Source: an uncultured Eubacteriales bacterium (GTDB lineage: Bacteria; Acidobacteriota; Aminicenantia; Aminicenantales; Saccharicenantaceae). From it: 64,000 nucleotides of DNA. Below are positions 12,207-27,155 of this stretch, one piece after another. Both the position numbers and the translations under genes were made by a program. Position 1 is the first letter of the stretch. Every line of letters starts with the position of its first letter. The DNA is taken from assembly GCA_964585685.1 (NCBI GenBank), contig CAZPEP010000044.1, positions 5,458 through 69,457 of the forward strand. Reading direction: 5' to 3'. The notes under the pieces are model-generated. The model was not told where the DNA came from and searched no databases. It saw nothing but the letters and a program-made list of their open reading frames with translations.

Positions 12207-13178
12207 CTACAGGTCCAGGGGGTTCGGCTTCAAGATCTTGATGTAGCTCTTCTCCTTGAGAGTCTTGAGGTAATCCTCGAGCTTCTTCTGCTTTTTCTCG
12301 GAGTAGAGCTTCTCCTCGACTTCCTTCTTGACCTCTTCGAACGTCCTTAGCCGGCTGTCCTTCTTCTCCTCCAGCTTGAGGATGTACCAGCCGTTTTTCG
12401 TCTGTACCCAGTCGCTCGTCTCACCCGCTTTGAGCTTGGCCGCCGATTGTTCGAGGGCCTTGTCCAATTCGCCCTTCCGGAACCGGCCGAGGTCCCCTTC
12501 GGCCTCCTTCGCCGGGCCGTCCGAGTATTCTTTGGCCAGCGCGTTGAAGGGCTCCCCGGCCTTGACCTTGCCGGAGATGAGCTTCCGCGCCTCTTCCAGG
12601 GCCTCCGGGGCCTTCCCCTCCGTGGAGAGGTAGATCGCGCGGACATGGTATTCCTCGGGCTCCGTAAACTCCTCGGGATGGAGCTTGTAATAGCCGACGA
12701 TCTCCGAATCATCAAGGACGATCGTCCGGTCCACCTCGGAATAGATGGTGGCCTGCCTCAGCATGTTGTCCTCGAGCTGTTTAACCCACTGGGCATAATC
12801 CAGCCCCTGCTGCTGGAGGCCCCTCTTCAGGTCGTCGTCGGACTCGATGTTGTTCTCCTTCTTGATGTTGTCGACGGCCATCTTGACCTGATCAGAGACG
12901 TTAAGGTTCTTCTCCTTGGCCTGCTGCATGAGGAGCAGGTCGGTGATCATCATGTTCAGCATTTCGTTCTTCAGCATCTGGTACTGCTTCTCGTACTCCT
13001 CCCCCTGAAGGGCGGACCGGAGCTGCTGGACGGTAGCATCGAACTGTTCCTTGTACTGGCTCAGGGTGATGACGTCATCGTTGACGACGGCGACGATCTC
13101 TTCGACGACCTGCCCGACGGCAGGCGCCAGGAAAACGGCGAGCCCTAAGAGGGCGAAGACGGGAATTTTTTTTCTCAT
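12207..13178 (-). CDS. SurA-like periplasmic chaperone / parvulin-type peptidyl-prolyl isomerase
   Basis: Signal peptide. SurA_N-like region. Parvulin rotamase domain (HVRAIYL ... GDLGRFRKGEL ... GWYILKLEE). Confidence 0.75.
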   Translation of the reverse strand: MRKKIPVFALLGLAVFLAPAVGQVVEEIVAVVNDDVITLSQYKEQFDATVQQLRSALQGEEYEKQYQMLKNEMLNMMITDLLLMQQAKEKNLNVSDQVKMAVDNIKKENNIESDDDLKRGLQQQGLDYAQWVKQLEDNMLRQATIYSEVDRTIVLDDSEIVGYYKLHPEEFTEPEEYHVRAIYLSTEGKAPEALEEARKLISGKVKAGEPFNALAKEYSDGPAKEAEGDLGRFRKGELDKALEQSAAKLKAGETSDWVQTKNGWYILKLEEKKDSRLRTFEEVKKEVEEKLYSEKKQKKLEDYLKTLKEKSYIKILKPNPLDL

Positions 13179-14155
13179 GGGAGGTTCCTTTGATAAGCGA
13201 AGGGTAATCTGTCGGGGTGCGAGCTCCAGGCGAGGGTCCTCTTGAGCTCTTCCAGGTGCGCGGCCAAGGCGTCTTTGACCTTGCCGGCCAGGACCTTGAG
13301 ACGGATGGCCGGGACCGCTTCCGCTTCCGGGAGGAGTTGGGGCGGGAACTTCCGGTCCACCCGGAATATATGGTAGCCGTAGGAGGATTCGACAACGGGA
13401 CTGAGGCGACCTTCCTCGAGCGGAAACACGACCTTCTCCATCTCGAAGGGTAGGTTCCCCGCCTTGAAGACCCCCATGGCGCCCCCCTTGAAGGCTTCAG
13501 GGCCGATCGATTCCTCCCGGGCGATCTTTCGGAACTCCTCTTCGGAAGCGTTCCTGAGCCTGCGGAGGACCTCCACAGCTTCATTTTCGGTCTCGAGGAG
13601 GATCTGGCTCACCCGGACCCGCTCGGAGACCAGGAAGTCCCTTTTATTCTCCTCGTAGAAAGCATGGACCTCGTCGTCCCGGACGCTGAGGCTGGCGAGG
13701 AATCGGCCGGAATATTTTTCGATAAGGGGCCTGTCAAACAGGTGCGGATCTCCCTCCGTCATGGTACCAGTTTCTCCGGGCGGGGCCTCGCCGGAAAGCT
13801 TCGCCAGATAGGTCTTCTCCTCTTCGGACGTCAGTGTCACGCCCTGCCCGCGGGCCGCCGCGAGGAGGAGCTTTTCCTCGACGAATCTGTCGTAAAGGCG
13901 GCTCAGCGAGACGGGCGAGAGCTCGCCCTTCCCGGCGTTGTCCCGGACATACCGGTCCAGGTCCGAATTGCGGAATTCCGTCCCTTCGACCTCTAGGATG
14001 ACCGTCTCCGCGGCCTTCGCGCCTCCGGAGGCCGAAGCTCTTCCGGCCTTCCCCCGGTCCCCGCAGGCGGCAGCGCAGGCGAAGCCGAGGATCGCCACGA
14101 GGGCGGCCGGCGGGAAGGTTCTGGAAAACGGGGCTCTCATCTTTTTTATATTCAA
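13175..14155 (-). CDS. Parvulin-type peptidyl-prolyl isomerase (PrsA/SurA-like), second copy
   Basis: Lipoprotein-like N-terminus (LGFACAAAC). Parvulin domain (VRVSQILL ... GGAMGVFKAGNL ... YGYHIFRVD). Translationally coupled to the upstream SurA-like gene. Confidence 0.7.
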   Translation of the reverse strand: MNIKKMRAPFSRTFPPAALVAILGFACAAACGDRGKAGRASASGGAKAAETVILEVEGTEFRNSDLDRYVRDNAGKGELSPVSLSRLYDRFVEEKLLLAAARGQGVTLTSEEEKTYLAKLSGEAPPGETGTMTEGDPHLFDRPLIEKYSGRFLASLSVRDDEVHAFYEENKRDFLVSERVRVSQILLETENEAVEVLRRLRNASEEEFRKIAREESIGPEAFKGGAMGVFKAGNLPFEMEKVVFPLEEGRLSPVVESSYGYHIFRVDRKFPPQLLPEAEAVPAIRLKVLAGKVKDALAAHLEELKRTLAWSSHPDRLPFAYQRNLP

Positions 14156-17100
14156 TTCATTGTAGTATAACCGGTCAACTCCTTCAAGATGCCGATGGTT
14201 GCCTCCAGGAAATCTGCGTCCGCCGCCGCGCCGAGGGTCAGCGCCATGACTCCCTGCGGGGTCATCGACCCGCGGTGCTTCTTGAGGAGGGCCGGGACGC
14301 GGGCGAGGTCCACGCCAGTGGTCGGCTCGAACTTGAAGACGAGTCTGTCCCCCGCCCGGTCCAACGATTCGATCCTGAGCCGGACTGCCAAGAACTTGAT
14401 CGCGCCGTAGCGCATAAGGTTCCCGACGCTCGCCGGGAGGTCCCCAAACCTGTCCCGGATCTCGCCTCGGATCCGATCGATCTCGCCCAGGTCCTCGATG
14501 GAGGACAGCCGCTTGTATAGGTTGAGCCTGAGGTTCACCTGCGGCAGGTAGTCCTCGGGCACCCGAATATCGGCCTTGAGGTTGATCTCCGTCTTGACCT
14601 CCTCGACCACCTCCCCTTTCTGTTCGCGGATGGCCTGGTCGAGCAGATGCATGAAATATTCGTAGCCGACCGCCTCGATGGTCCCGCTCTGCCGGTGGCC
14701 GAGGAGGTTGCCGGCGCCGCGGATCTCGAGGTCCTTAGCTGCCAGCCGGAACCCGGAACCCAGCTCGGAGAACTCCTTAAGGGCCTTAAGCCGCTCCCGG
14801 GCGAGCGGCGTGAGCTCCGTCAGCGGGGGCACGAGGAAATATGCGGTGGCCTGGCGGGAGGAGCGGCCCACCCGACCGCGCAATTGATAGAGCTGGGCCA
14901 GCCCAAAGAGGTCGGCCCGGTCGACGATCAGGGTATTGACCAGGGGGATGTCAATGCCGTTCTCGATGATCGTCGTGGAGACGAGGACGTTGTATTCGCG
15001 GGCGATGAAAGCCATCATCCGCTTCTCGAGTGCGGCGCCGGACATTTGGCCGTGAATCGTGACGACCCGGGCCTGCGGGACCAGTTTTTCCACGAGGCGG
15101 GCCACCCGGTCGATGTCCTCGATGCGGTTGTGGACGTAAAAGACCTGTCCCCCACGGTTGAGTTCCTGGCGGACGGCCGAAGCCACGAGCTTGGCATTCC
15201 ACGGGGTCACGACGGTGTGGACGGACAACCGGTCCCGGGGCGGCGTCTCGATCAGGCTGATGTCCCTGAGCCCGGTCAGGGACATGTTGAGGGTCCGGGG
15301 GATCGGCGTTGCCGTTAGGGTCAAGACGTCGATGTTCGCCCTGAGGCCCTTGATCCTCTCCTTGTGACTGACGCCGAACCTCTGCTCTTCGTCGACGATG
15401 AGGAGCCCGAGGTCCTTGAAAACGACATCCTTGGAAAGGATCCGATGCGTCCCGACGAGGATGTCGACGAACCCTTTTCCGACGTCCCCGAGGACGGCCT
15501 TCTGCTCGATTCGGGATTGGAGCCGGGTCAGCCCCTCGACGCTCACCGGGAAGAGAACCATCCGGGCCTTGAACGTCTTGAGGTGCTGGCTCGCCAGGAC
15601 CGTGGTCGGGCAAAGGACGGCCACCTGTTTCCCGTCCATGACGGCCTTGAAGGCGGCGCGCATCGCAACCTCGGTCTTCCCATAGCCGACATCGCCGCAG
15701 AGCAGGCGATCCATGGGAGTTTCCGACTCCATGTCCTTTATGATCTCGCGAATGGACTTAAGCTGGTCCTCCGTCTCCTCGTGCTCGAAGATCTTTTCGA
15801 ACTCCGTCCCCCACAGACCCTCGGGGCTGAAGGATATGCCCCGGACCGACTTCCTCAGGGCGTAGAGCTCGAGGAGCTCCCGGGCGATAGCTTCGACGGC
15901 CTTTCTGGTCCGGGCCTTGGTCTTCTGCCACGTGATCGTCCCCAGCTTGTCGAGGGGGGGCGCGGCGTCGCCGGCCTTGGAAAATTTCTGGACGAGGTTC
16001 AGGTCCTCGACCGGGACAAGCAGCTTGTCGCCGTCGCGGTAGAGGAGCTCGATGAACTCCCGGGACCTTCCGTCGACCTCGACCCGCCGCAGGCCGTGGA
16101 AGATGCCGACGCCGTAATCCGTATGAACGACGAGGTCGCCGCTTTCGAGGTCCTGGAACTGGGAGAAGAAAGGCTTCCGGGAAGCACGATGGACGAGGAC
16201 CTTCTCCTCGGTGAAGATGTCCCGCTCGGCAAAGATGATGACCTTGGCCCGCGGATAAGCGAACCCTTCGCCCAGGCCGCCGAGGAGGAGGCTGATCTCA
16301 CCGCTCTTCGGAACGGCGAGGGGATCGGAGGATTCGATCGCCTGGATGCCGCTTTCCTCGAGCAGGGTGGCCAGCCTCTGCCGGGTGCCCTGGTTGGAGA
16401 GATAGACATAACAAAGCTCCCGTTCCCACTGGAGCTTCTTGAGGTATTCCAGGAAGAACCCGATCTTGTTTTCGAACTTTGGGACCGGCTGGAAGGCAAA
16501 CGAGACCGTCTTCCGATCCGGCTCGGCGACCAGTTCCTGGATGACGAGGGCGTCCCGGGAAACGGCCTTCCAGAGGGAGGGCGGGTAGATCGTCCCGGGC
16601 GGGAGGGCGAAGGTCCTGCTTCCCGCCAGTTCGCCGTGATGGCTCACGAGTTCCTCCCTGGCCTTTACCCATTCCCGCTCGATCTCGTCCCGGTCGTCGA
16701 GGATGAAAACGGAGTCCCCGAGATACCGGGTGAACGGGACGAACCGATCCGCGGCGAGGAGGGACAGATAGACGAACGAGGGGAGGTATTCGCCGCCCTC
16801 AAGGAAGCGAATCTTCTCCTCGAGGTCCGCCCGGGCCTCCCCGCCGGCCTTGCGGGCGAGCCGGACCCAGTCCTCAAGGAACTCGGGCGTGCCGGGGAAC
16901 TCCCGGAGGGAGGGCACGAGAGCCCGGTCCAGGCGGCGGAGCGAGCGTTGGGTACCCGTATCGAATTCTCTGAGCGAGGCCACTGTGTCGGCGGCGAACT
17001 CGATCCGGACGGGATTCGCCTGCCAGGGCGGAAAGACGTCCACGATACCGCCGCGCCAGGCGTATTCTCCGGGCGAAGCGATGATGTCCTCACGCGAATA

Positions 17101-17589
17101 CCCGTATTCGGCGAAGGTTCGGAGGAGGATATCTCGGTCGGCATTTTCCCCGACCTCAAGCTTCATGAACGAGCGCTCAAGCTCCTCCGGGCAAGGGATG
17201 GGCTTCAAGAGCCCGAACGGGTTCGTCAGGACCAGCGAAGGCTTCCCGGGCCGGGCCTCGTGCAGGAATCGCATCCTCGAGGATACCGCCTCGAGGGAAG
17301 GGGGGATCTCCAGGTACGGGTCGTCGGAGAGCGCCGGAAGGACGCCCGTCCCGAGCGTCGAGCGGAATTGGCCCAGGAAGAACCGGCATTCCTTTTCGAG
17401 GGGAGAGAGGTCCCGGGAAGGAGGGCGGACGCATACCATCCTCCTCCCGAGCTTCAGGGCGAGACAGGCCAGGAGATAGGGTTTGGCGGCGTCCGTGATG
17501 CCGGCGATCCGGAGCCCCTTGTCTCCGCTCAGGACGGACTCGAGGATCTCCTTGAATTCCGGCGTATCGAAGAGAAAACCCAGACTCAC
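14152..17589 (-). CDS. mfd: Transcription-repair coupling factor Mfd
   Basis: 1145 aa. UvrB-homology N-terminus. RNAP-interacting domain. DEAD/DEAH superfamily 2 helicase motifs (GDVGYGKTEVAMRAAF, DEEQRFGV). TRG motif region. Confidence 0.95.
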   Translation of the reverse strand: MSLGFLFDTPEFKEILESVLSGDKGLRIAGITDAAKPYLLACLALKLGRRMVCVRPPSRDLSPLEKECRFFLGQFRSTLGTGVLPALSDDPYLEIPPSLEAVSSRMRFLHEARPGKPSLVLTNPFGLLKPIPCPEELERSFMKLEVGENADRDILLRTFAEYGYSREDIIASPGEYAWRGGIVDVFPPWQANPVRIEFAADTVASLREFDTGTQRSLRRLDRALVPSLREFPGTPEFLEDWVRLARKAGGEARADLEEKIRFLEGGEYLPSFVYLSLLAADRFVPFTRYLGDSVFILDDRDEIEREWVKAREELVSHHGELAGSRTFALPPGTIYPPSLWKAVSRDALVIQELVAEPDRKTVSFAFQPVPKFENKIGFFLEYLKKLQWERELCYVYLSNQGTRQRLATLLEESGIQAIESSDPLAVPKSGEISLLLGGLGEGFAYPRAKVIIFAERDIFTEEKVLVHRASRKPFFSQFQDLESGDLVVHTDYGVGIFHGLRRVEVDGRSREFIELLYRDGDKLLVPVEDLNLVQKFSKAGDAAPPLDKLGTITWQKTKARTRKAVEAIARELLELYALRKSVRGISFSPEGLWGTEFEKIFEHEETEDQLKSIREIIKDMESETPMDRLLCGDVGYGKTEVAMRAAFKAVMDGKQVAVLCPTTVLASQHLKTFKARMVLFPVSVEGLTRLQSRIEQKAVLGDVGKGFVDILVGTHRILSKDVVFKDLGLLIVDEEQRFGVSHKERIKGLRANIDVLTLTATPIPRTLNMSLTGLRDISLIETPPRDRLSVHTVVTPWNAKLVASAVRQELNRGGQVFYVHNRIEDIDRVARLVEKLVPQARVVTIHGQMSGAALEKRMMAFIAREYNVLVSTTIIENGIDIPLVNTLIVDRADLFGLAQLYQLRGRVGRSSRQATAYFLVPPLTELTPLARERLKALKEFSELGSGFRLAAKDLEIRGAGNLLGHRQSGTIEAVGYEYFMHLLDQAIREQKGEVVEEVKTEINLKADIRVPEDYLPQVNLRLNLYKRLSSIEDLGEIDRIRGEIRDRFGDLPASVGNLMRYGAIKFLAVRLRIESLDRAGDRLVFKFEPTTGVDLARVPALLKKHRGSMTPQGVMALTLGAAADADFLEATIGILKELTGYTTMN

Positions 17590-17632: not shown

Positions 17633-19789
17633 CTAGATCCTCAGCCAGTAGGAGAACTTGAGATAGATGCTGTAGTTCTTCCGGTCGTACCGGCGGAAGA
17701 TGTTCCGGTCATAGTTGCTGTCGAATCCCGCGTAGATCAGCGTCCCAGGCCCGACGACGTAGCTCGCCAGGACGCTGCCGAAGATCTGCTTGTAAAAGAG
17801 ATTGTAGTCAAGGATGGCCCTGAAGGCGAGCTTCTTCGAGGCCTGGCAGGTCGTCCGTAGCCGGACGACGTTGTAGTCCCAGAGCCGGTCCCCTCCCCAT
17901 TTCCTCCAGAAGGTCTCCTTGCTGAAGTCCGTACCCACCTGGATCCGCTTGCTCGGCTTGAAATTCAGGGAGATCCCGTACCGGTTGCTGTAGCCGAGGA
18001 AGGGGTCCTCCGGGTCGTAGTTGACGGCGTTTCCCGTCATGAAGAAGAAACTGAAAGGGAGCCGGCGGATAATGCTGAACTGGGACTGAACCTCGAGGGT
18101 GGTCTTGTTGAACGCGACGCCCGCGAATCGTTCCAAGCTCGAGATCAGGACGGCCTCCAACTGGTTGAACTCCGTGAAGCGGAAGGAGATCCGGGACCTG
18201 AACCAACGGTCCTGGACCGTATCGGAGAAATAGGCCTCCCTCTGCCCCGCCTCGAGGTTCAGGTTGACGCGGTTGAGGAACCGCTTATCCGGATAGAGCG
18301 TGAAGAACACGTAGGCGCCAGCCGACCGGTAATCGACGCGGTTGACGAAGCCCGAGGAGGCTTCGAAGTCCGGATGGAGGGACTTCCAATAGGCCCCGCC
18401 TCCCCAATATTTCGAGAAGTAGTAGGCATCCGCGTAGAGGGCGGGGGCGAAGGTCGTCTCCTGGCCATCGTCCCGGCTCTTCGACCCCACGGCCTGGAAC
18501 GTGAAGAACCACTTGTCATTGAAACGGAACTGGCCGTCGAAGCCGGCGACCCTGTTCCAAGAACCGTCGATCTCCTTGTCGGCCAAGGAAAAGCCCAGGT
18601 AGGATTCCTTGAAGACGTCGGTCTTCAACCGGACGATATTGAACAGGGCCTTGTCGTCCTTCGCGGCGCTCCCGCCGTCGTGGACGTCCCAGAGGCTCTC
18701 GGAAGGATGCCGGTCGTAGGCCGAAAGGAGGGCGTAGGCGATCCGTCCTGTCTTCCCTGAGAGCTTAACCCCCCAAGCCGGGTCGATGATCCGGCGTGTG
18801 TAGACCATCTCGATCTCGGGAAACTGGAACAACTCCATCCCTTCGAGGAAGAAGGGCCTCTTTTCCTGGTACCGGAGGGCGTACCTCAGGTTGACGTCGA
18901 TCTGGGGGGCGTCGGCTTCGATATGGCTGAAGTCCGGATTGGCGGTGAGGTCCAAGGTCATGTCGGAGTTGATCCCGTACTTGAGGTTAACGCCCGGCTC
19001 GAGATCGGGCTTTTCGCCCTCCCTCTTCAGGGCGGTCAGGATGGGCATGATCTCCAGGTTCTTCCCCTTCTCGACCTTTCCCCGGACTAGGAATTGCCCG
19101 CCCTGCGAGAGGAGCCCCGGGATATCCCTCGAGACGGTCGGCCAGATGATGATCTCTCCCGTCCGGGGGAGGTTCCGGCCGAGGACGATGTTCCATAACT
19201 TGTCCTCGCTATCCGGGAAACGGAAGCTCTTGAAGGGGATGGCGGCTTCGATCGTATAGCCCAGCTCGTCGATCCGCCCGTCGGACGCGAAGACCGTGTC
19301 CCAACTGTCGTCGATGTTATCGTTGCCGCCGCCCTCGGTCCGCATGCCGTCCATCTGGATCCCGACCGGGTTCAGGATGAACGTGAACGCGCGGCGCTTC
19401 TCGTTGAACGTGTCGAGGAACAGGACGATCCAGTCATCGTCAATGATGTTATCGCGGTTGGTGATAGAACAGCGGATCTTTCCGGGCTGTACATCGAAGC
19501 AACGGAACGCGATGTAAAGGTTCTTCGCGTCGTGGCCCAGGTAGGCGATCGTCCGTTCGGTCGGTATCCCGTTCTCCTTGGGCGTGAGCTGGACGAAGTT
19601 CTCGATCTTAAGCGCCCCGGCTTCCCAGAGGGGTTCGTCCAGGACACCATCGATCTTCGGGGTCATCGTAAGCCTGGGGATCTCGAGGCGTTCCCCGGTC
19701 CCGGCGAAAGCGGCCACGGACGCCATCGACGCCAAGAGTCCGATGCCCGTCACCGAAAAAAGCCTTCGTATCGAACCTGATATGGTCAT
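17633..19789 (-). CDS. DUF5916 / CBM9-like domain outer-membrane protein
   Basis: 718 aa. Signal peptide. N-terminal carbohydrate-binding-family-9-like region (PKIDGVLDEPLWEAG). Long beta-rich C-terminal part ending in an aromatic residue pattern (YWLRI) typical of OM beta-barrels. Confidence 0.6.
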   Translation of the reverse strand: MTISGSIRRLFSVTGIGLLASMASVAAFAGTGERLEIPRLTMTPKIDGVLDEPLWEAGALKIENFVQLTPKENGIPTERTIAYLGHDAKNLYIAFRCFDVQPGKIRCSITNRDNIIDDDWIVLFLDTFNEKRRAFTFILNPVGIQMDGMRTEGGGNDNIDDSWDTVFASDGRIDELGYTIEAAIPFKSFRFPDSEDKLWNIVLGRNLPRTGEIIIWPTVSRDIPGLLSQGGQFLVRGKVEKGKNLEIMPILTALKREGEKPDLEPGVNLKYGINSDMTLDLTANPDFSHIEADAPQIDVNLRYALRYQEKRPFFLEGMELFQFPEIEMVYTRRIIDPAWGVKLSGKTGRIAYALLSAYDRHPSESLWDVHDGGSAAKDDKALFNIVRLKTDVFKESYLGFSLADKEIDGSWNRVAGFDGQFRFNDKWFFTFQAVGSKSRDDGQETTFAPALYADAYYFSKYWGGGAYWKSLHPDFEASSGFVNRVDYRSAGAYVFFTLYPDKRFLNRVNLNLEAGQREAYFSDTVQDRWFRSRISFRFTEFNQLEAVLISSLERFAGVAFNKTTLEVQSQFSIIRRLPFSFFFMTGNAVNYDPEDPFLGYSNRYGISLNFKPSKRIQVGTDFSKETFWRKWGGDRLWDYNVVRLRTTCQASKKLAFRAILDYNLFYKQIFGSVLASYVVGPGTLIYAGFDSNYDRNIFRRYDRKNYSIYLKFSYWLRI

Positions 19790-19900: not shown

Positions 19901-20107
19901 TCACGGCTTCGGGGCCGCCACGTCCACGACCCGGCCGTCCTCGAGACGGCATCGGAAGAGATCCGTGACCTCGCCCGTCTTCGGGTCGAGCGTCCGTTTT
20001 CTTGAAAGAACATCCCGGACTTCCAGCCGGCGGCCTTCGATGACGGTGAAGCGCGGGGTCTCGGCAGCCTTGTGGCCGGCGTAGAATTCGCCGGAAACGG
20101 TCTTCAT
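19901..20107 (-). CDS. Small hypothetical protein (68 aa)
   Basis: Has its own extended -10 promoter (TGaTATAAT, minus strand at 20138..20146) and a G-rich RBS. Non-shadow composition. Confidence 0.4.
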   Translation of the reverse strand: MKTVSGEFYAGHKAAETPRFTVIEGRRLEVRDVLSRKRTLDPKTGEVTDLFRCRLEDGRVVDVAAPKP

Positions 20108-20230: not shown

Positions 20231-21379
20231 ATGAAACTGATCGGGCTCAAAAAAACCGCGGGCTTCGCTCTCGGCATCCTGGCCGTTTCGGCGCTCCTCG
20301 GCGCCCAAGCGCCGGAACGCTTCTTTGACACCGCGTCCGTCAAACACGAGGGCGTGCGGCTCGTCGTCTTCTATCCCTCCGTCGGATCGATCCGGGCCCT
20401 CTCGGCCCTAAGGAAGACGGGGGCCCTGGACGTTCCGGGGCTCGTCGTCGTCGGCGTCCATCACGCCCGGGAAGCGACCGAATATGAGGACGCTCGCGCC
20501 TATGTCCGGGAGAACGGCATCGACTGGTTCCGTTTCCACACCGTCTCGGCGGACATCTCCGAAGACGCTCTCTTCAGGATGAACGCCTGCACTCCCGAGT
20601 ACGAGAGGATCTTCCGGGCCTCCGACGGCATCATCTTCTTCGGCGGCCCCGATATTCCCCCCTCCATCTACAACGAAAAGACGAATCTCCTGACCGTGAT
20701 CGAGGACCCCGTTCGCCATGATTTCGAGATCTCCGCATTATTCCACCTTTTGGGCGGGCTCCAGGATCCGGCATTTAAGGCGCTCCTCGACGACAAGCCC
20801 GGCTTCCCGGTCCTGGGGATCTGTCTGGGCTGTCAGAGCCTGAACGTCGCCACGGGCGGGACCCTCATCCAGGATATCTGGTCCGAGGTCTACAACAAGC
20901 CGGACGTTGAGGATGTCCTCGCCCTCGACCCCGAGCTTTGGCACAACAATCCCTATAACCGGATTTATCCCCAGGAAAATCTGATGCCCCAAAACTTCCA
21001 CGGGATCCGGCTTGAAGAGCACGGGATCTTCTGTTCGGAAATGGGCTTCGGAACGGCCGACCATCCGCGCGTCCTCAGCTCCCACCACCAGGCGTTGGAA
21101 AAATTGGGCAAAGAGCTCAAGGTCATCGCCACTTCCATGGATGGGAAGATCGTTGAGGCCGTCGCGCATGAGAAATACCCCAACGTCCTCGGCATCCAAT
21201 TCCACCCGGAGAACCGGATGCTCTGGGAGAGCGATCCCGTCCACCGCCAGGCCCCCGGCGAAGCGCCTTTCAGCTTCAAGGGGCTCCTCGAGGAGACACC
21301 GCCGAGCACCGAATTCAACAGGGATATCTGGCGGTGGCTCGGCCAAAAGCTGATCAAGGCGTCCAGGCCGCGGGCTTAG
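20231..21379 (+). CDS. Secreted class-I glutamine amidotransferase-like hydrolase (peptidase C26 / gamma-glutamyl hydrolase-like)
   Basis: Signal peptide. Catalytic Cys motif GICLGCQ. Histidine region with IQFHPE. Confidence 0.7.
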   Translation: MKLIGLKKTAGFALGILAVSALLGAQAPERFFDTASVKHEGVRLVVFYPSVGSIRALSALRKTGALDVPGLVVVGVHHAREATEYEDARAYVRENGIDWFRFHTVSADISEDALFRMNACTPEYERIFRASDGIIFFGGPDIPPSIYNEKTNLLTVIEDPVRHDFEISALFHLLGGLQDPAFKALLDDKPGFPVLGICLGCQSLNVATGGTLIQDIWSEVYNKPDVEDVLALDPELWHNNPYNRIYPQENLMPQNFHGIRLEEHGIFCSEMGFGTADHPRVLSSHHQALEKLGKELKVIATSMDGKIVEAVAHEKYPNVLGIQFHPENRMLWESDPVHRQAPGEAPFSFKGLLEETPPSTEFNRDIWRWLGQKLIKASRPRA

Positions 21380-21468
21380 GGAACCGGATCGAGACCTCCG
21401 CGCCCCGCGCCTTGACAATACACTATTATTATTATAGGATATAGGAAGATTTAACGAAAGGAGCTCTC

Positions 21469-21543
21469 ATGAAGCGTTTCCTGATTCCGAGAGTATCGCA
21501 CTGTAAAAGCGGCTGCTTGCCGCCCTCCCGAGCAAGAGGCTAA
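21469..21543 (+). CDS. Possible 24-aa upstream ORF / leader peptide (MKRFLIPRVSHCKSGCLPPSRARG)
   Basis: Strong RBS (aaaggag) 7 nt before ATG. Sits 108 nt upstream of the parvulin lipoprotein gene. Shares the MKRF start with the downstream paralog 24203. Confidence 0.25.
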   Translation: MKRFLIPRVSHCKSGCLPPSRARG

Positions 21544-21651
21544 AAGGCTCGCCCGAGAGAGGGCCTGATCCAACCGACGCCTCGGTTGCAAACAGATCCT
21601 CAATATGGTTAACTCTCTTTCCGCCTCTAATGGGCTTAAAAGGAGATCAAG

Positions 21652-22665
21652 ATGAAGAGGATACCGGTTTTATTGCTTGTTTTCGCATTCCTTTTCCCGA
21701 GCTGTAACCGTAAGGCCGAAAAAATGGTGCTCAAGGATGGCACCCCGGCCTTCAAGCTTGCCAGGGACCTGGCGGTCAAGATCCCCATGCTTGATCCCGT
21801 GGAGAATAATGTCCTCATCCGGACCCGGAAGTTTGACATAACGACCGGCGAGACCATACAGGTCCTCCTGGGGAACTTCGGGAATCAAACCGAACAGCTC
21901 AAGGAGTTCGACTCTATTCAACTGAGGGAGTCCATCGAGACCGCCGCCGTCGAGCTCGCCGAGAAAAAACTCCTGCTCCAAGAAGCCGAGAGGGCCAAGG
22001 TGTTCGTCGACCCCGCTGTCCTGGACGAGGTCATTAAGGCTGAACACGAGCGGCTCGGCGGCAAAGAGAAGTTCCTGGAGTCTCTAAAGACGATCGAAGT
22101 CGATGCCGAAACCATCATGAAGAGCCTTGCGGAACAGGTCCGGATAGATGCCTTCTTGGAGAAGACGCTGAACAAGAACGTTACCGTCACGGCTGAAGAA
22201 GTGGCCAGGACCTACGGAGAGGACCTGACGGCTTCCGTCCGCCACATCCTCCTTCTGACACAGGGAAAGACAGGGCCGGAAAAGACTAAAATCCGGAAGC
22301 GGATGGCGGGGATCCTGGCCAGGGCCCGATCCGGGGAGGACTTCGCTGAGCTGGCGAAACAGTACTCCGAAGAGCCGGGCAGCAAGGAGAGCGGGGGCAT
22401 GTATGCGGTCCTCCGCGGGATTACGGACAAGGCCTTTGAGGATGCCGCCTTCTCCGTTCCGATCGGCCAGATTAGCGACATCGTGGAAACGACCTATGGG
22501 TATCACATCCTCCAGATCATCAGCCGGGAGAAAGAGACCCGACCGTTTGACGAGGTCAAGGGCGAGATCGAAAAGCGTATCGCCGGGAGAAAGCGAAAAG
22601 TGATCTTGGACACCTTCCTGACAAAAATAAGGGACAAAGCAGGATTCAAGACCGTGGGCTTCTGA
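21652..22665 (+). CDS. Parvulin-type PPIase lipoprotein (PrsA-like), paralog 1
   Basis: Lipobox LFPSC. Parvulin domain (SVRHILLL ... YGYHILQI). About 60% identical to the 24203..25222 product. Lower GC than paralog 2. Confidence 0.75.
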   Translation: MKRIPVLLLVFAFLFPSCNRKAEKMVLKDGTPAFKLARDLAVKIPMLDPVENNVLIRTRKFDITTGETIQVLLGNFGNQTEQLKEFDSIQLRESIETAAVELAEKKLLLQEAERAKVFVDPAVLDEVIKAEHERLGGKEKFLESLKTIEVDAETIMKSLAEQVRIDAFLEKTLNKNVTVTAEEVARTYGEDLTASVRHILLLTQGKTGPEKTKIRKRMAGILARARSGEDFAELAKQYSEEPGSKESGGMYAVLRGITDKAFEDAAFSVPIGQISDIVETTYGYHILQIISREKETRPFDEVKGEIEKRIAGRKRKVILDTFLTKIRDKAGFKTVGF

Positions 22666-22712
22666 TCCCGCACGTCCGTTCTCCATCCCGGGAAGATGAC
22701 TTCCGGACTTGA

Positions 22713-22740
22713 ACGTCCCGGCGGACGTTTATGTTTCTCT
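22713..22740 (+). terminator. Putative intrinsic terminator after PPIase paralog 1
   Basis: Stem ACGTCC (22713..22718), loop CGGC, stem GGACGT (22723..22728), followed by T-rich TTATGTTTCTCT. Confidence 0.4.
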
Positions 22741-22944
22741 GTCCCGCGGATTCGAATTGACAGCCGCGGGGCCGACCTCTACAATGACACCGTGACCACC
22801 GCTAGGTTCCGCCGCCCCCCGACATCCGAAGGCATCCACGCGCACCTCGTCGGCTACGTCAACCTCTTCAGCGGGCTGTAATCCCAATTCGGCCCATCCC
22901 CGTCCCACCAGCGGCTCACCCCCATATTCGCTGAAGGAGGCATC

Positions 22945-24087
22945 ATGAAAAAGATCGTCGTGTTAGGCTCGGGCCTGGTCGGCGGCCCGATAGCCCTCGA
23001 CCTCGCCAAGGATAAGGATTTCAAGGTCACTGTCGTCGATATCGATGCCCAAGCTCTGGCTCGGGTCAAGAAGACCAGGGGCGTCACCGCCATCCAGGAA
23101 GATCTTTCGGACGCGAAGATCGTCCGAAGGATCGTCCAGAAGCACGACATGGTCGTCAGCGCCGTACCCGGCTTCATGGGCTTCAAAACCCTCCAGACCG
23201 TTCTCGAAGCCGGCAGGACCGTGGTCGACATCGCGTTCTTCCCCGAGGACGCGTTCGAACTGGACGCCCTCGCCCGGAAGAACGACGTCACCGCCGTCGT
23301 GGACTGCGGCGTCGCCCCCGGCATGAGCAACATCCTCGCCGCCCACGCCTGCCAGAAGCTCGACGAGCCCGCAAGCATCACGATCTACGTCGGCGGCCTG
23401 CCCGAGGTCCGGGAGTGGCCCTATGAATACAAGGCTGTCTTCTCCCCGGCCGACGTCATCGAAGAATACGTCCGGCCGGCCCGCTACATAGAGAACGGGC
23501 AGATGGTGATCCGCCCCGCCCTGTCCGACCCCGAGCTCATGAACTTCCCGGTCGTCGGGACCCTCGAGGCCTTCAACACGGACGGCCTGCGCACCCTGGC
23601 CAGGACCCTTGACGTCCCCAACATGAAGGAGAAGACCCTCCGCTACCCCGGCCACATCGAGAAGATGGCCGTCCTGAGGGAGACGGGCTTCTTCGAAACC
23701 CGGGAGATCGAGATCAATGGAGCCCGCATCCGCCCGGTCGATTTCACGGCGAAGCTCCTCTTCCCGAAATGGAAGCTTCATGAAGGCGAGGTTGACCTCA
23801 CCGTCATGAGGGTCCTCGTCGAAGGCCGGAAGAAGGGCCGGTCCGTCAGCATGACCTACGACCTCTTCGACCGCTATGACGAAGCGACCGGCGTCCATTC
23901 CATGGCCCGGACGACCGGCTACACGGCCACTGTGGCGGCCCGCATGATCGCCCGCGGCCTGTTCGTCCGCAAGGGCGTCTCGGCCCCCGAATCCATCGGC
24001 CAGGTCCCCGAATGCGTGAAGTTCATGCTGGACGGGCTGAAGGAGCGCGGCATCGTCTATCACGAAACCGTCGTGACGTGCAAATGA
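22945..24087 (+). CDS. Saccharopine dehydrogenase NADP-binding family oxidoreductase
   Basis: Rossmann motif VVLGSGLVGG. Family-typical core (VVDCGVAPGMSN, YPGH). Confidence 0.8.
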   Translation: MKKIVVLGSGLVGGPIALDLAKDKDFKVTVVDIDAQALARVKKTRGVTAIQEDLSDAKIVRRIVQKHDMVVSAVPGFMGFKTLQTVLEAGRTVVDIAFFPEDAFELDALARKNDVTAVVDCGVAPGMSNILAAHACQKLDEPASITIYVGGLPEVREWPYEYKAVFSPADVIEEYVRPARYIENGQMVIRPALSDPELMNFPVVGTLEAFNTDGLRTLARTLDVPNMKEKTLRYPGHIEKMAVLRETGFFETREIEINGARIRPVDFTAKLLFPKWKLHEGEVDLTVMRVLVEGRKKGRSVSMTYDLFDRYDEATGVHSMARTTGYTATVAARMIARGLFVRKGVSAPESIGQVPECVKFMLDGLKERGIVYHETVVTCK

Positions 24088-24202
24088 CGTGTAAATAAGG
24101 AGCGAGATAGGCGAGACGAGTCGTCGGGCGGGACGGGGCATTTGAATATGGACACGCGATGTGGTTTAATATCTATCCGATTCCAGCGGCTTCAAGGAGA
24201 CA

Positions 24203-25222
24203 ATGATGAAGAGATTCGCGGCATTATCGCTCGCCTTGGCGTTCCTCCTCCCGGGTTGCGCTCGGAAGGCCGAGAACGTCGGGCTCAAGGAAGGAACGCC
24301 GGCTTTCCAGCTGGCCAAGGACCTTTCAGCCAAGGTCCCCTCGCTCGACCCGGCAGCCAACAACGTCCTCGTCAGGACTAAAAGGTTCAACGTCACCACC
24401 GGGGATGTCCTCCTGGCTCTCCGGGACAACGCGGGAACCCAGACCGCCCGGCTCAAGGACCTCGAAATCGCCCAGCTGAAATCGGTCATCGAGCGCACCG
24501 CCATTCAGTTCGCAGAGAAGGAGCTCCTGCTCAACGAGGCCATAAAGGCCAAGACCGCCGCTCCAGCCGGGTATCTGGAGAACACCCTCAAAGCCGAGTA
24601 TGAACAGGCCGGCGGGGAACAAAAGTTTCTCGACAACCTGAAGGCGAACGAGCTCGACATCGAACATATCAAGAAGAGCTTCGGTGAGCAGATCCTTATC
24701 AACGCCTTCCTTGAATCCAAGCTGTCCAAGGAAATCGCCGTCGCTCCCGAGGACGTCGCCAAGGCCTACGCGGAGGATAGGACAGCCTCCGTCCGGCACA
24801 TCCTCCTGCTGACGCAGGGGAAGACGGACACCGAGAAGACCGAGGCCCGCAAGAAGATCGAGGAGATCCTCGCCAAGGCCAAGGCCGGCGAGGATTTCGC
24901 CGCCTTGGCCAAGCAGTACTCCGAGGACCCGGGGTCCAAGGAAAACGGCGGCCTGTACGAGAATTTCGGCCGCGGGGCCATGGTCAAGCCGTTTGAGGAC
25001 GCCGCCTTCTCAGTTCCCGTCGGGGAGCTCAGCGGAATCGTGGAAACGACTTACGGCTACCACCTCCTGAAGATCGTCGACCGCAAGAAGGAGACCCGCG
25101 CGCTGGACGAGGCCAAGGGCGAGATCGAAGCGCAGCTCAAGCAGGGGAAACAGCAGGGGGCTTACACGTCCTTTATGACGAAGCTAAAGGAGAAAGCCGG
25201 CTTCAAGACCGTGGGCTTCTGA
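24203..25222 (+). CDS. Parvulin-type PPIase lipoprotein (PrsA-like), paralog 2
   Basis: Lipobox LLPGC. Parvulin domain. Same C-terminus (KAGFKTVGF) and conserved 3' flank as paralog 1. Confidence 0.75.
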   Translation: MMKRFAALSLALAFLLPGCARKAENVGLKEGTPAFQLAKDLSAKVPSLDPAANNVLVRTKRFNVTTGDVLLALRDNAGTQTARLKDLEIAQLKSVIERTAIQFAEKELLLNEAIKAKTAAPAGYLENTLKAEYEQAGGEQKFLDNLKANELDIEHIKKSFGEQILINAFLESKLSKEIAVAPEDVAKAYAEDRTASVRHILLLTQGKTDTEKTEARKKIEEILAKAKAGEDFAALAKQYSEDPGSKENGGLYENFGRGAMVKPFEDAAFSVPVGELSGIVETTYGYHLLKIVDRKKETRALDEAKGEIEAQLKQGKQQGAYTSFMTKLKEKAGFKTVGF

Positions 25223-25301
25223 TCCCGGACGTTCGTTCGTTTTCCGGCGTGAAAAATCTCCCGGCCTTGAACGGGTCCGGCGATAGGACTATCATCGGCC
25301 C

Positions 25302-26078
25302 ATGGATCTGCTGACGATTGCCTTGCTGGCCCTGATCCAAGGGATCACCGAGTTTCTGCCGGTGTCCTCGTCCGGCCACTTGGTCATCGCCCAGCATTTT
25401 CTTTCCTGGAATCGGGACAACGTCCTTCTCGACGCGACGCTCCATCTCGGGACGGCGGCCGCCATCGTCTGGGTGTTCCGGAACGACATCCGGACGCTCG
25501 TCGCGGGCCTCTTCTCGCGGGACGCAGCGAAGAAGCGGGACTCTTTCCGCACCTCGGCGTTCCTGGCCCTCGGGACGATCCCGGCCGCGGCGGCGGGACT
25601 GGCCTTCAAGGGTTTCTTCGAACGGATGTTCCTCGACCCCCGGACGACGGGAGCCCTGTTCTTCGTTACGGCGGCCTTCCTCTTCGCCTCCGCCCTGCGA
25701 AAAAGGCTGTCCGCCCCGCTCAATGCCCGGAAAGCGGCCGCGATCGGATTCGCCCAAGCCCTGGCCATCTTGCCCGGCGTGTCCCGTTCTGGTACGACGA
25801 TCAGCACCGCGCTCCTGCTCGGAACGGAAAGAAAGGAAGCCGGGCGCTTCTCCTTTCTCCTGGGGCTGCCGGTCATCTTCGGGGCCGCCCTCCTGGAGCT
25901 GCGGGGGGTGTCCGCAACGTCCCTGCCCCCCGGGTTGTTCCTCGCAGCGTTCGCCATCAGCCTCGCCGTCGGCGTCATCGCCCTGAAGCTGCTGCTTGGT
26001 TTCATCGACCGCGGCAAGCTCCATTATTTCGGATATTATCTGGTCGCGCTAGGGGTCGCCTGCCTCGTTTTCTTATGA
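25302..26078 (+). CDS. uppP: Undecaprenyl-diphosphatase
   Basis: BacA/UppP signature N-terminus (QGITEFLPVSSSGHL). 8-TM architecture. PGVSRSG motif. Confidence 0.9.
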   Translation: MDLLTIALLALIQGITEFLPVSSSGHLVIAQHFLSWNRDNVLLDATLHLGTAAAIVWVFRNDIRTLVAGLFSRDAAKKRDSFRTSAFLALGTIPAAAAGLAFKGFFERMFLDPRTTGALFFVTAAFLFASALRKRLSAPLNARKAAAIGFAQALAILPGVSRSGTTISTALLLGTERKEAGRFSFLLGLPVIFGAALLELRGVSATSLPPGLFLAAFAISLAVGVIALKLLLGFIDRGKLHYFGYYLVALGVACLVFL

Positions 26079-26102: not shown

Positions 26103-27155
26103 ATGAAAAGGCTATTCGGCATTCTCGCCGCCGTGATCGTCGCCACGCCCCTCGCGGCCGGAACGACCCGACCCGTCCGCGACGACGTCGGCTTCTGTTG
26201 GAACCCTGCCGGCATGGCCCGGCTCGTAGTATACCTGGACTCCCGGGACAAGGACGGCTTTCCCGGCGAGGGGCTGGTCGCGGCCATCGCGCCCCACGAC
26301 GATTACCTCTACGCGGGACGTATCTATCATCCGCTCTTCAAGACCCTCCGGGCGAAGGAAGTCGTCATCTTCGGCGTCACGCACGGCGCGGTCCGTAAGG
26401 AGATCGGCGACCCCCACGGCGTCCTCATTCTCGAAGGATACGACGCGTTTCCGGGGCTGACGAAACCGATCGGGATCTCAGGGCTCCGGGAGCGCATCAA
26501 GGCCCGTCTGGACAAGGACATGTTTTTGGTCAGCGACAGGGCCCACGAGCTCGAGCACTCCATCGAAGCGCTCCTGCCCTTCCTCCAGTACTACAACCCG
26601 GACGTGAAGATCACACCCATTATGGTCGCGCCCATGCCGTACGACAGGATGGACACGGTCGCGACAAAGCTGGCCGCCGTCATCGCGGGGTACATCAAGG
26701 AAAAGGGTCTGGTCCCCGGAAAGGACATCGCCTTCCTCATCTCCTCGGACGGCAACCATTATGGGAAGGATTTCGATAACTCCCCGTTCGGCGAGGGGGC
26801 CGAGGCCTGGGAAAAGGCGACTGCCCTCGACCGTCATCTCATCGCAAGCTACCTCACAGGTCCGATGGATGCGGCCAAGATCGAGGGGCTAACGAAAGAG
26901 CTCTGGGGCGAGACCTATATCGATTACAGGAACACCTACTGGTGCGGCAAATATTCCGTCCCCTTCGGGCTCCTCGCCGCGGAGAAGATCGTCGCCCTGG
27001 CAGCGAACAAGAAGCTCTCGGGAACGCTTTTCCGTTATTCGGACACCTACAGCGAGGGCGCCATCCCGCTCACCAAGACGGGAATGGGTACGACCGCTCC
27101 CTTCTCCCTGCGCCACTGGGTCAGTTTCTGTTCGATCGGCTATGGCGTCGAATAG
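26103..27155 (+). CDS. MEMO1-family protein (AmmeMemoRadiSam system protein B homolog) with N-terminal signal peptide
   Basis: IAPHDDY and HSIE metal-site motifs of the Memo/extradiol-dioxygenase-like fold. Hydrophobic N-terminal signal. Confidence 0.7.
   Translation: MKRLFGILAAVIVATPLAAGTTRPVRDDVGFCWNPAGMARLVVYLDSRDKDGFPGEGLVAAIAPHDDYLYAGRIYHPLFKTLRAKEVVIFGVTHGAVRKEIGDPHGVLILEGYDAFPGLTKPIGISGLRERIKARLDKDMFLVSDRAHELEHSIEALLPFLQYYNPDVKITPIMVAPMPYDRMDTVATKLAAVIAGYIKEKGLVPGKDIAFLISSDGNHYGKDFDNSPFGEGAEAWEKATALDRHLIASYLTGPMDAAKIEGLTKELWGETYIDYRNTYWCGKYSVPFGLLAAEKIVALAANKKLSGTLFRYSDTYSEGAIPLTKTGMGTTAPFSLRHWVSFCSIGYGVE

Follow-up and report, generated by a model that had tools for sequence, protein, structure and literature searches.

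We analysed a 64,000-nucleotide stretch of DNA from an uncultured bacterium of the Aminicenantia (contig CAZPEP010000044.1; the window), in which two genes for SurA/PrsA-like parvulin lipoproteins, par1 (337 amino acids (aa), positions 21652-22665) and par2 (339 aa, 24203-25222), flank a saccharopine-dehydrogenase-family gene (SDH, 22945-24087), all on the + strand. It is likely that par1 is the derived paralogue, a copy of a par2-clade gene that was inserted with its flanks into the terminator of an independent micro-gene, here termed EL, which lies behind a gene for a secreted C26/GATase-like protein (C26, 20231-21379, + strand). The window matches metagenome contig JGI 3300036982 Ga0393266_0000076, and the segment from C26 through the small open reading frame (ORF) of EL to par1 (and SDH) is identical in three independent assemblies, that of the window and two further ones, which rules out an assembly artefact as the source of this layout. 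Closest among genome records are metagenome-assembled genomes labelled Candidatus Aminicenantes, to our knowledge a candidate phylum without a cultured representative. All relatives compared are metagenome assemblies, which were collected in two ways, by homology to par2 and with a degenerate DNA pattern for the EL peptide.

The two parvulins align over their full length with 56% identity and 74% positives (BLASTP, E=4e-133), and their genes are 68.6% identical between 21603-22681 and 24159-25238 (blastn). Both proteins match the Pfam families Rotamase_3 (PF13616) and Rotamase (PF00639), with 92.6 and 81.0 bits for par1 and 119.5 and 96.6 bits for par2 at gathering cut-offs of 22.5 and 21.7. 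A sequence-only reading of the window had recognized the genes as parvulin-type paralogues, which these searches bear out; its estimate of about 60% identity captured their close relationship and somewhat overstated the measured value, and the identical ends (KAGFKTVGF) to which it drew attention are present in both proteins but are a family-wide feature, not one peculiar to the pair. The same reading had described par1 as the more AT-rich copy, and par1 indeed has a GC content of 0.560 and a third-position GC content (GC3) of 0.749, against 0.606 and 0.835 in par2. With neighbouring genes at GC 0.57-0.645, par1 has the lowest GC and GC3 of its neighbourhood.

Similarity between the copies extends beyond the coding region, as had also been claimed for the downstream flank, so that the outcome named in advance as refuting the claim, a likeness limited to coding sequence, did not occur. 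An alignment of 58-60 nt after the stop codons scored 29, against 13.8 +/- 2.3 for shuffled sequences (maximum 25; n=2000; z=6.8, p<0.0005). The par1 3' flank (22666-22723, + strand) corresponds to positions 25223-25282 of the spacer between par2 and uppP (25223-25295, + strand), which we regard as its source, and extends to the -35-like TTGAAC of the uppP promoter-like site (TTGAAC-17-TATCAT, 25267-25295, + strand). This flank also resembles the par2 flanks of three related loci (L007, L004 and L127). Upstream of the genes, the pairwise signal was weaker (45 nt, z=2.8, p=0.02 in the shuffle test) and grew to ~65 nt once the par2 orthologues of four other lineages and the par1 of locus L083 were included in a multiple alignment. 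The 5' flanks have in common a promoter-like TTGnAn-17-(TGG)TTnAnT and a ribosome-binding site (RBS). In the copied 5' flank of par1 (21586-21651, + strand) these are TTGCAA (21586-91), a 17-nt spacer, TGG-TTAACT (21609-14) and AAGGAG (21640-45), and before par2 (24142-24202, + strand) they are TTGAAT-17-TGG-TTTAAT (24142-24170) and AAGGAG (24194-24199). Shared sequence on both sides indicates that the copied unit spans ~21586 to ~22723. A terminator-like hairpin, UGAACGUCC-CGGC-GGACGUUUA followed by UGUUUCUCU, lies at 22710-22731 (+ strand), and both 3' flanks fold no better than shuffled sequences (z=-0.2 and -1.0). We also observed that par2 has two adjacent ATG codons (24203-24208). Since its orthologues are 338 aa long and its RBS lies 6 nt from the second ATG, matching the spacing in par1, the true start of par2 is probably 24206, not 24203.

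Around the stop codons (22636-22684 against 25193-25241) the identity rises to 44 of 49 bases, including an exact run of 26 nt (TTCAAGACCGTGGGCTTCTGATCCCG), and this stretch could be a short gene-conversion tract or could reflect constraint on the 3' end. The contrast with the 68.6% overall identity raises the alternative that the flank similarity arose through later conversion between par2 and par1 in this lineage and is not a leftover of copying. Such a history would be consistent with the par1 3' flank scoring best against its own par2 flank (z of 6.6, against 5.1, 4.2 and 3.6 for other lineages) and with the absence of a similar flank from the par1 of L083. We consider it improbable, however, because sliding windows through the genes varied between 54 and 77% identity without an outlier, there was no tract above 80% elsewhere in the gene, and the flank past its first 16 nt is only ~70% identical and also resembles the par2 flanks of other lineages. 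In addition, a 24-nt 3' coding motif is kept in both paralogues across all close lineages, which fits constraint.

Comparison with relatives identifies which of the genes moved. The order SDH-par2-uppP(-Memo) was present in relatives fetched by par2 homology and by the DNA pattern, with uppP at 25302-26078 and the Memo-like gene at 26103-27155 in the window (both + strand). More fully, C26-EL-(DUF6786)-SDH-par2-uppP-Memo was found in L004, L006, L007, L127, L149 and L151, and C26-EL-SDH-par2-uppP in L170 and L171. This conservation indicates that SDH is the ancestral upstream neighbour of par2 and that par1 was inserted, which reverses the earlier view of SDH as an insertion between the two copies. 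The copies are thus not strictly tandem, as SDH and its upstream ORF lie between them and par1 occupies a separate slot behind EL. A more distant locus (L172, 3418-9515; par2 63% identical) departs from this order: where C26-EL-SDH would precede par2, it has an ABC exporter pair together with several small ORFs and a radical-SAM/SPASM pair, an assemblage that looks like a cluster of the ribosomally synthesized and post-translationally modified peptide type.

The slot between C26 and SDH is occupied by a gene for a 410-aa DUF6786 lipoprotein in L004, L006, L007, L127 and many other loci, and is empty in L170 and L171. About 13 loci carry 3-7 kb of other genes in this slot, some on the opposite strand; this cargo lies between EL and DUF6786 in L084, L090, L093, L094, L104, L106, L134, L141, L149, L156, L165, L168 and L169, and includes LuxR-TPR regulators, TonB-dependent-receptor-like barrels, and a subtilase with an OmpW-like barrel. 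Such variable content indicates that the site behind EL behaves as an insertion hot spot for envelope genes. In the window, the left junction of the par1 unit lies at ~21582-21585, where the terminator found in relatives can be followed to ...CCGACGCC (21581) and is succeeded by par-type sequence. In L004 and L007 the EL terminator is kept as GGCCCG...CGGGCC plus T8; aligned with them, the window retains only its 5' half (GGGCCTGATCCAACCGACGCC, 21561-21581, + strand), the 3' half of the hairpin and the T-run being missing. At the right junction (~22724-22740) the par2-type flank ends at ~22723, and from 22741 there is homology to the region after the DUF6786 stop codon in L004, L007 and L127; the homology upstream of SDH is also shared with L083. 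By these alignments, the par1 unit exactly takes the place of DUF6786 in the window. The DUF6786 gene is absent from the window, reduced to a 144-nt 3' remnant in L083, and split into 274 and 54 aa after par1 in the P0060 contig.

A different arrangement was found in L083 and L105, where the order is a first anchor copy (C26 3' end and EL), par1, an IS4 remnant, a second anchor copy, the DUF6786 remnant and SDH. The second anchor copy is 93.6% identical to the first and 94% identical to L007. The IS4 remnant, of 217 nt, directly follows the par1 orthologue (L083 1319-1535, with the same sequence in L105 on the reverse strand; YLTRWRIEDVIRFIK) and encodes the C-terminal Y-2-R-3-E-6-K motif of a DDE transposase (Pfam DDE_Tnp_1, E=3.9e-4; NCBIfam IS4, E ~1e-3). 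Judged from this end product, the layout is the one expected from insertion at the anchor, either assisted by an insertion sequence (IS) or by a single crossover, and such an insertion accounts for the presence of par1 in L105 and its absence from the closely related L007. A crossover between the two anchor copies would remove par1 again. The likeness to a Campbell-type or IS-assisted event lies in the position of par1 and the IS4 remnant between direct duplicates of the anchor, from which the window copy differs in having neither a second anchor nor an IS remnant.

The gene has a narrow distribution. Only three lineages carry par1, namely the window, L083/L105/L144 (74% identical to the window par1) and the P0060 contig (77%), and a search of 5.8 billion proteins returned only four par1-type clusters (100, 95, 77 and 74% identity), with the next match at 59%. 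Beyond its own clade, par1 is nearest to those par2 proteins that are closest to the par2 of the window (57-59%), followed by the group of par2 proteins at 68-70% identity (54-56%) and the group at 63-65% (50%). In a neighbour-joining tree the par1 clade was monophyletic in 200 of 200 bootstraps, on a long branch, and was sister to the close par2 clade in 106 of 200, a moderate value. Divergence between par1 and par2 amounts to 1.15 at synonymous sites (dS) and 0.30 at replacement sites (dN), and dN/dS is 0.30 among par1 orthologues and 0.23 among par2 orthologues. By these ratios par1 is a gene under purifying selection, evolving ~1.5 times faster than par2 at replacement sites.

Several observations weigh against the derivation of par1 from a par2-clade gene by insertion with its flanks. 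The sisterhood of par1 and the close par2 clade has a bootstrap value of only 53%, with par1 on a long branch. The dS of 1.15 between the paralogues is more than twice that (~0.45) between lineages differing in the presence of par1, which implies that par1 was lost several times or moves laterally among relatives, and par1 could have arisen first in a related lineage. Similarity in the non-coding flanks roughly equals that of the coding DNA though synonymous sites are near saturation, and constraint or later gene conversion is needed to account for this. The par1 of the L083 lineage is without the shared 3' flank, the lipoprotein status of the products follows from a lipobox read by eye with Pro at -2, and both translation of EL and read-through from it into par1 have been deduced from sequence. 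Some of these points suggest that par1 is a xenologue, acquired in an already diverged form from another Aminicenantes lineage through homologous or IS-mediated recombination at the C26/EL anchor. We regard this as a possibility of appreciable weight, though not the favoured one. The patchy occurrence of par1 among close lineages (absent from L007, present in its near relative L105/L083), its position between 93.6%-identical anchors beside an IS4 remnant in L083, the excess of dS over the inter-lineage value and the locally lowest GC and GC3 would all be expected from such a transfer. The window, however, has no IS remnant, its par1 flanks are of par2 type and most like those of its own par2, and the ultimate source would still be the same par2 clade. 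Moreover, this alternative concerns the route of arrival and not the paralogy, and so can be combined with the derivation from par2.

Derivation of par1 from par2 would have proceeded as follows. The source would be a par2 gene of the same Aminicenantes sub-clade, from which a unit of ~1.15 kb, comprising the promoter-like site, the RBS, the gene and ~58 nt of spacer up to the uppP -35-like element, may have been copied either by tandem duplication followed by deletion or by direct illegitimate insertion. This unit would have landed in the terminator of EL, directly after the C26/GATase-like gene. The copy then evolved faster than par2 and grew more AT-rich while remaining under purifying selection, and it fixed a change of GxMVKPF to GITDKxF in the proline-binding pocket together with a one-residue deletion; par1 is probably a specialized foldase, not a decaying copy. 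The products of both genes are predicted to act as membrane-anchored periplasmic chaperones of SurA/PrsA architecture. Duplication of a parvulin gene is ordinary biology, with a history that is well resolved in this instance, and the case adds detail and overturns nothing known; its merit is that an envelope-folding factor duplicated with its own control regions is well documented here, the copy then having probably specialized and moved between related uncultured lineages at one fixed anchor in the genome.

The change in par1 affects a conserved part of the parvulin domain. The two active-site histidines (VRHIL... and ...GYHI/L) are kept by every one of the 114 further family members and by the four proteins of the par1 clade. 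In a G-x-M-V-K-P-F motif, Met is found in 113 and Val in 112 of these 114 members, par2 following the pattern with its Met, but all four par1-clade proteins have G-I-T-D-K-x-F preceded by a one-residue deletion, such that Thr-Asp replaces Met-Val. The position of the catalytic Cys/Asp holds Asp in par2 and all 114 relatives, and Glu in the window par1 and P0085 alone. We take this position and the pocket Met to be the equivalents of C113 and M130 of Pin1, the Met presumably lining the proline pocket. Because the pocket change is conserved under purifying selection, it suggests an altered substrate preference for par1.

Bacillus PrsA (6VJ6) is the closest solved structure by sequence (E=7e-21 for par1 and 4e-26 for par2), followed by SurA, then further PrsA proteins and PEB4. 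The structure of par1 modelled with AlphaFold2 (predicted local distance difference test score of 85.5) consists of a helical N-domain, the parvulin domain and a long helix at the C-terminus, and its top Foldseek matches were SurA, PrsA, PEB4/Cj1289 and HP0175, with the PrsA entries 6VJ6, 6VJ4, 4WO7, 5HTF and 5TVL at E values of 4e-12 to 2e-10 and probability 1.00. Neither protein reached the NCBIfam equivalog cut-offs for PrsA (NF002846 and NF002827; 72.3 and 67.8 bits for par1, 93.1 and 68.1 bits for par2, cut-offs 361 and 343) or for SurA (NF008038; 44.5 and 50.2 bits, cut-off 394), the latter with a single parvulin domain in each. We therefore call them SurA/PrsA-like parvulin lipoproteins and not PrsA. 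Lipoboxes were read by eye as MKRIPVLLLVFAFLFPS-C18 and (M)MKRFAALSLALAFLLPG-C (LPGC and FPSC), in which the Pro at -2 is unusual, the relatives having canonical LAGC, IAGC or AVGC.

Among structures, the best sequence matches are thus the PrsA lipoproteins of Firmicutes (B. cereus 6VJ6, B. anthracis 6VJ4, B. subtilis 4WO7 and Listeria PrsA1 5HTF), which share with par1 and par2 a putative lipoprotein signal and the combination of helical N-domain, single parvulin domain and C-terminal helix, and with par2 the motifs SEDPGSK...GG...GxMVxxF...GYHI. Differences lie in the Thr-Asp for Met-Val and the Glu for the catalytic-site Asp of par1, and in location. The host is presumably diderm, since it encodes SurA-like proteins and its relatives encode TonB-dependent receptors and outer-membrane-protein (OMP) barrels, which would place these proteins in the periplasm and not at a Gram-positive membrane-wall interface. 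SurA itself (9HG5, 1M5Y and 2PV3 among the top Foldseek ranks) shares the core of N- and C-terminal helices and the role of periplasmic parvulin chaperone, but is soluble and has two parvulin domains, whereas par1 and par2 have the lipobox cysteine seen by eye. The small SurA-like chaperones PEB4/Cj1289 of C. jejuni (3RFW/3RGC) and HP0175 of H. pylori (5EZ1) share that core and role and, like par1 and par2, have a single parvulin domain.

EL is the new part of this finding and was unannotated before; the duplication beside it is ordinary. It was recognized as a conserved unit of ~165 nt which, in an alignment of the region downstream of C26 from the window, L004, L006 and L007, is far more conserved than the adjacent genes. 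In the window it consists of a promoter (TTGACA-17-TAGGAT, 21412-21440, consensus scan), a Shine-Dalgarno sequence (SD; GGAG, 21460-21463), an ORF of 24 codons (MKRFLIPRVSHCKSGCLPPSRARG, 21469-21543, stop codon at 21541-21543) whose ATG lies 5 nt after the GGAG, and crossing helices (21524-21551), all on the + strand. The strong RBS that the sequence-only reading saw before this ORF is therefore present. The peptide has the conserved head MKRFxIPRVSHCKxGC, and its first 16 residues are almost unchanged while neighbouring proteins drop to 50-65% identity. The degenerate peptide pattern retrieved EL from 87 metagenome loci, directly after C26 in nearly all of them, and altogether EL holds this position in more than 85 Aminicenantes contigs irrespective of the gene that comes next. 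As a search by peptide biases the peptide recovered, L170 and L171, which were fetched by their par2 homologues only (64-65% identical), are informative; both have EL right after C26, with the peptides MKRFLVPRVSHCKSGCLRSS and MKRFIVPRVSHCKSGCPPASRA.

Six lineages found without the peptide provide an unbiased view of its conservation. Variable sites among these make up 8 of 15 third-codon positions, compared with 5 of 30 at the first two codon positions (Fisher p=0.015); amino-acid replacements are confined to codons 5, 6 and 9, and every other change is synonymous. The SD (GAAAGGAG) is invariant although it lies outside the search pattern. A promoter of the form TTGAC(A)-17-TAG(T/G)AT precedes EL in 82 of 85 unique copies, and its spacer contains a dyad, CCTACTAT-A-ATAGTAGG, with 70% complementarity at the centre over 63 unique promoters. 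The window holds a degenerate copy of this dyad (21423-21437), and a scan of the window for the dyad matched the EL site only, at chance level.

The 3' segment of EL, also outside the search pattern, is conserved as CCUCC(C/U)GAGCA-N-GAGG-NN-AAA-NN-GCUC. In the window, CCUC (21524-21527) can pair with GAGG (21536-21539), and CGAGC (21529-21533) with GCUCG (21547-21551). Changes in paired columns of the alignment accord with these helices: the pair 90/103 (CCUC/GAGG) is CG in 72 copies and AU in 7, with none broken, and the pair 96/114 (GAGC/GCUC) is AU in 68, GC in 6, GU in 2 and another combination in 3. As the two helices cross, the result would be a small pseudoknot of the H type or a pair of alternative hairpins. 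Single changes move the stop codon among codons 21, 23 and 25 without disturbing the conservation of these nucleotides. A hairpin with a T-run is found in 43 of 85 unique copies, ending at a median of 135 nt after the ATG, and there is none in the window copy. Two other pairings were considered and set aside: a hairpin of the SD-AUG spacer with codons 7-9, which has ~5 bp in the three main types in differing registers and is unpaired in minor variants and in L170, and a pairing of the SD with CCUCC, for which RNAalifold gave a weak consensus (-7.5 kcal/mol) and against which CATCC/GATG covariation argues.

These RNA features raise the question of whether EL is a non-coding element, either a cis-regulatory RNA of riboswitch or attenuator type or a pure small RNA, in which the 24-codon frame is incidental. 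Compensatory changes in two helices outside the search pattern, movement of the stop codon within conserved nucleotides, the frequent hairpin and T-run ~135 nt after the ATG, and a conserved CCUCC resembling an anti-SD would all fit such an element. On balance we think it unlikely, as neither the SD nor the ATG varies, most changes in codons 1-16 of the six unbiased lineages are synonymous and at third positions, and codon 14, which is unconstrained, specifies Ser through AGC as well as TCC. A dedicated cis-regulator is further disfavoured by the variable and sometimes convergent downstream gene. No Rfam 15 match at gathering score was obtained across the whole window, and permissive searches of 21300-25400, 21400-21660 and L171 8420-8650 returned chance-level matches only; the window EL leader folds no better than shuffled sequence (z=-0.48). 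A dual-function RNA may nevertheless apply.

Among the genes that follow EL, DUF6786, par1, SDH and LuxR-TPR share its strand, and a TonB-dependent receptor gene or the subtilase and OMP genes lie on the opposite one. Because the next gene is variable and can be convergent, EL is best understood as a micro-gene in its own right, not as a leader of par1. The suggestion that the ORF is a dedicated leader peptide is accordingly not borne out, given also that EL usually has its own terminator. In the window this terminator has been lost, and transcription from the strong EL promoter therefore probably reads into par1, so that the ORF would be carried on a transcript reaching that gene. The other earlier suggestion, which saw in the ORF a relic of the 5' end of a third parvulin gene, drew on the MKRF start shared with par2 and finds a further resemblance in a Cys at a lipobox-like distance (SGC, residues 14-16). 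We give it almost no credence, since the ORF is constrained in lineages without par1, where it lies between C26 and DUF6786, SDH or other cargo, its nucleotide similarity to par1 and par2 ends at ATGAAG.G.TTC, and par-derived DNA begins only at ~21586.

We tentatively propose, as an interpretation with somewhat less than an even chance of being correct in full, that EL represents a new Aminicenantes micro-gene family. Its members would be units of ~165 nt with an operator-like dyad in the promoter, a basic peptide of 20-24 residues with a His-Cys-x3-Cys arrangement that is possibly metal- or redox-active, and a 3' pseudoknot that may make the transcript a dual-function RNA; they would be fixed behind C26 at a recombination hot spot where lineages exchange genes for lipoproteins and envelope proteins (par1, DUF6786, TonB-dependent receptors, subtilase and LuxR-TPR genes). 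Within the scenario for par1, we read EL as an independent micro-gene for a basic Cys/His peptide and possibly also a small RNA of dual function. The 24-aa peptide had no Pfam or NCBIfam match, searches that have low power at this length, and when the window and 80 genome loci anchored on par2 were searched with an nhmmer profile of EL, no additional or diverged copy came up. The literature on small ORFs or RNAs of Aminicenantes yielded nothing relevant.

We liken EL to leader-peptide attenuators (trpL, hisL and pheL; the arrest peptides TnaC and SpeFL) and to the small proteins of dual-function RNAs (SgrS/SgrT, SR1/SR1P and RNAIII/hld). In common with these, EL has a short ORF, a strong SD, a predicted transcript of ~165 nt and conserved RNA helices, often with an intrinsic terminator, and its peptide is conserved as strongly as arrest peptides. 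It differs in lacking a run of regulatory codons, in conservation of the N-terminal part with a variable C-terminal tail, and in the inconstancy of the downstream gene.

A second small ORF precedes SDH. It runs from a GTG at 22792 to a TAA at 22881 (+ strand), encodes V/M-TTARFRRPPTSEGIHAHLVGYVNLFSGL and appears to be leaderless, as the promoter TTGACA-17-TACAAT (22757-22785) ends 6 nt before it; this ORF of ~30 codons, which with its promoter spans 22757-22881, ends 63 nt before the start of SDH. Its C-terminus (LVGYVNLFSGL) and the underlying nucleotides are kept in L004, L006, L007, L083, L120 and L127, and in L170 as LIGVLNLFSGL; it is absent from L171. We regard it as a candidate for a leader peptide, or a small protein, of the SDH-family gene. 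The greater value of the locus lies in these two small ORFs, EL and the leaderless ORF upstream of SDH, which were missed by automatic annotation and are testable candidates for small-protein or RNA regulators. EL may additionally serve as a sequence landmark for variable envelope-gene cassettes in Aminicenantes metagenomes.

Two further parvulin genes lie on the - strand next to mfd (14152-17589), one encoding a protein with a parvulin domain alone and one a SurA-like protein with a SurA_N domain (13175-14155 and 12207-13178); the gene at 12207-13178 is the genuinely SurA-like gene of this genome. Over the parvulin region they are only 27-33% identical to par1 and par2, and they occupy the same position in L170, L171 and the P0060 contig. 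Because mfd overlaps the first parvulin gene by 4 nt (14152-14155) and that gene overlaps the SurA-like gene by another 4 nt (13175-13178), the arrangement suggests that the three form one operon. The count of four parvulins in the window, which the sequence-only reading had considered an unusual density, is correct, but three of them belong to conserved synteny; three parvulins within ~12 kb are the normal state of this clade, with par1 as the sole addition.

Between mfd and C26 lie two further genes on the - strand, a DUF5916 gene (17633-19789) and a conserved ORF of 68 codons (19901-20107; MKTVSGEFYAGHKAAETPRF...) that is divergent from C26. The latter has no Pfam match, and it adjoins C26 in most relatives with 47-78% identity.

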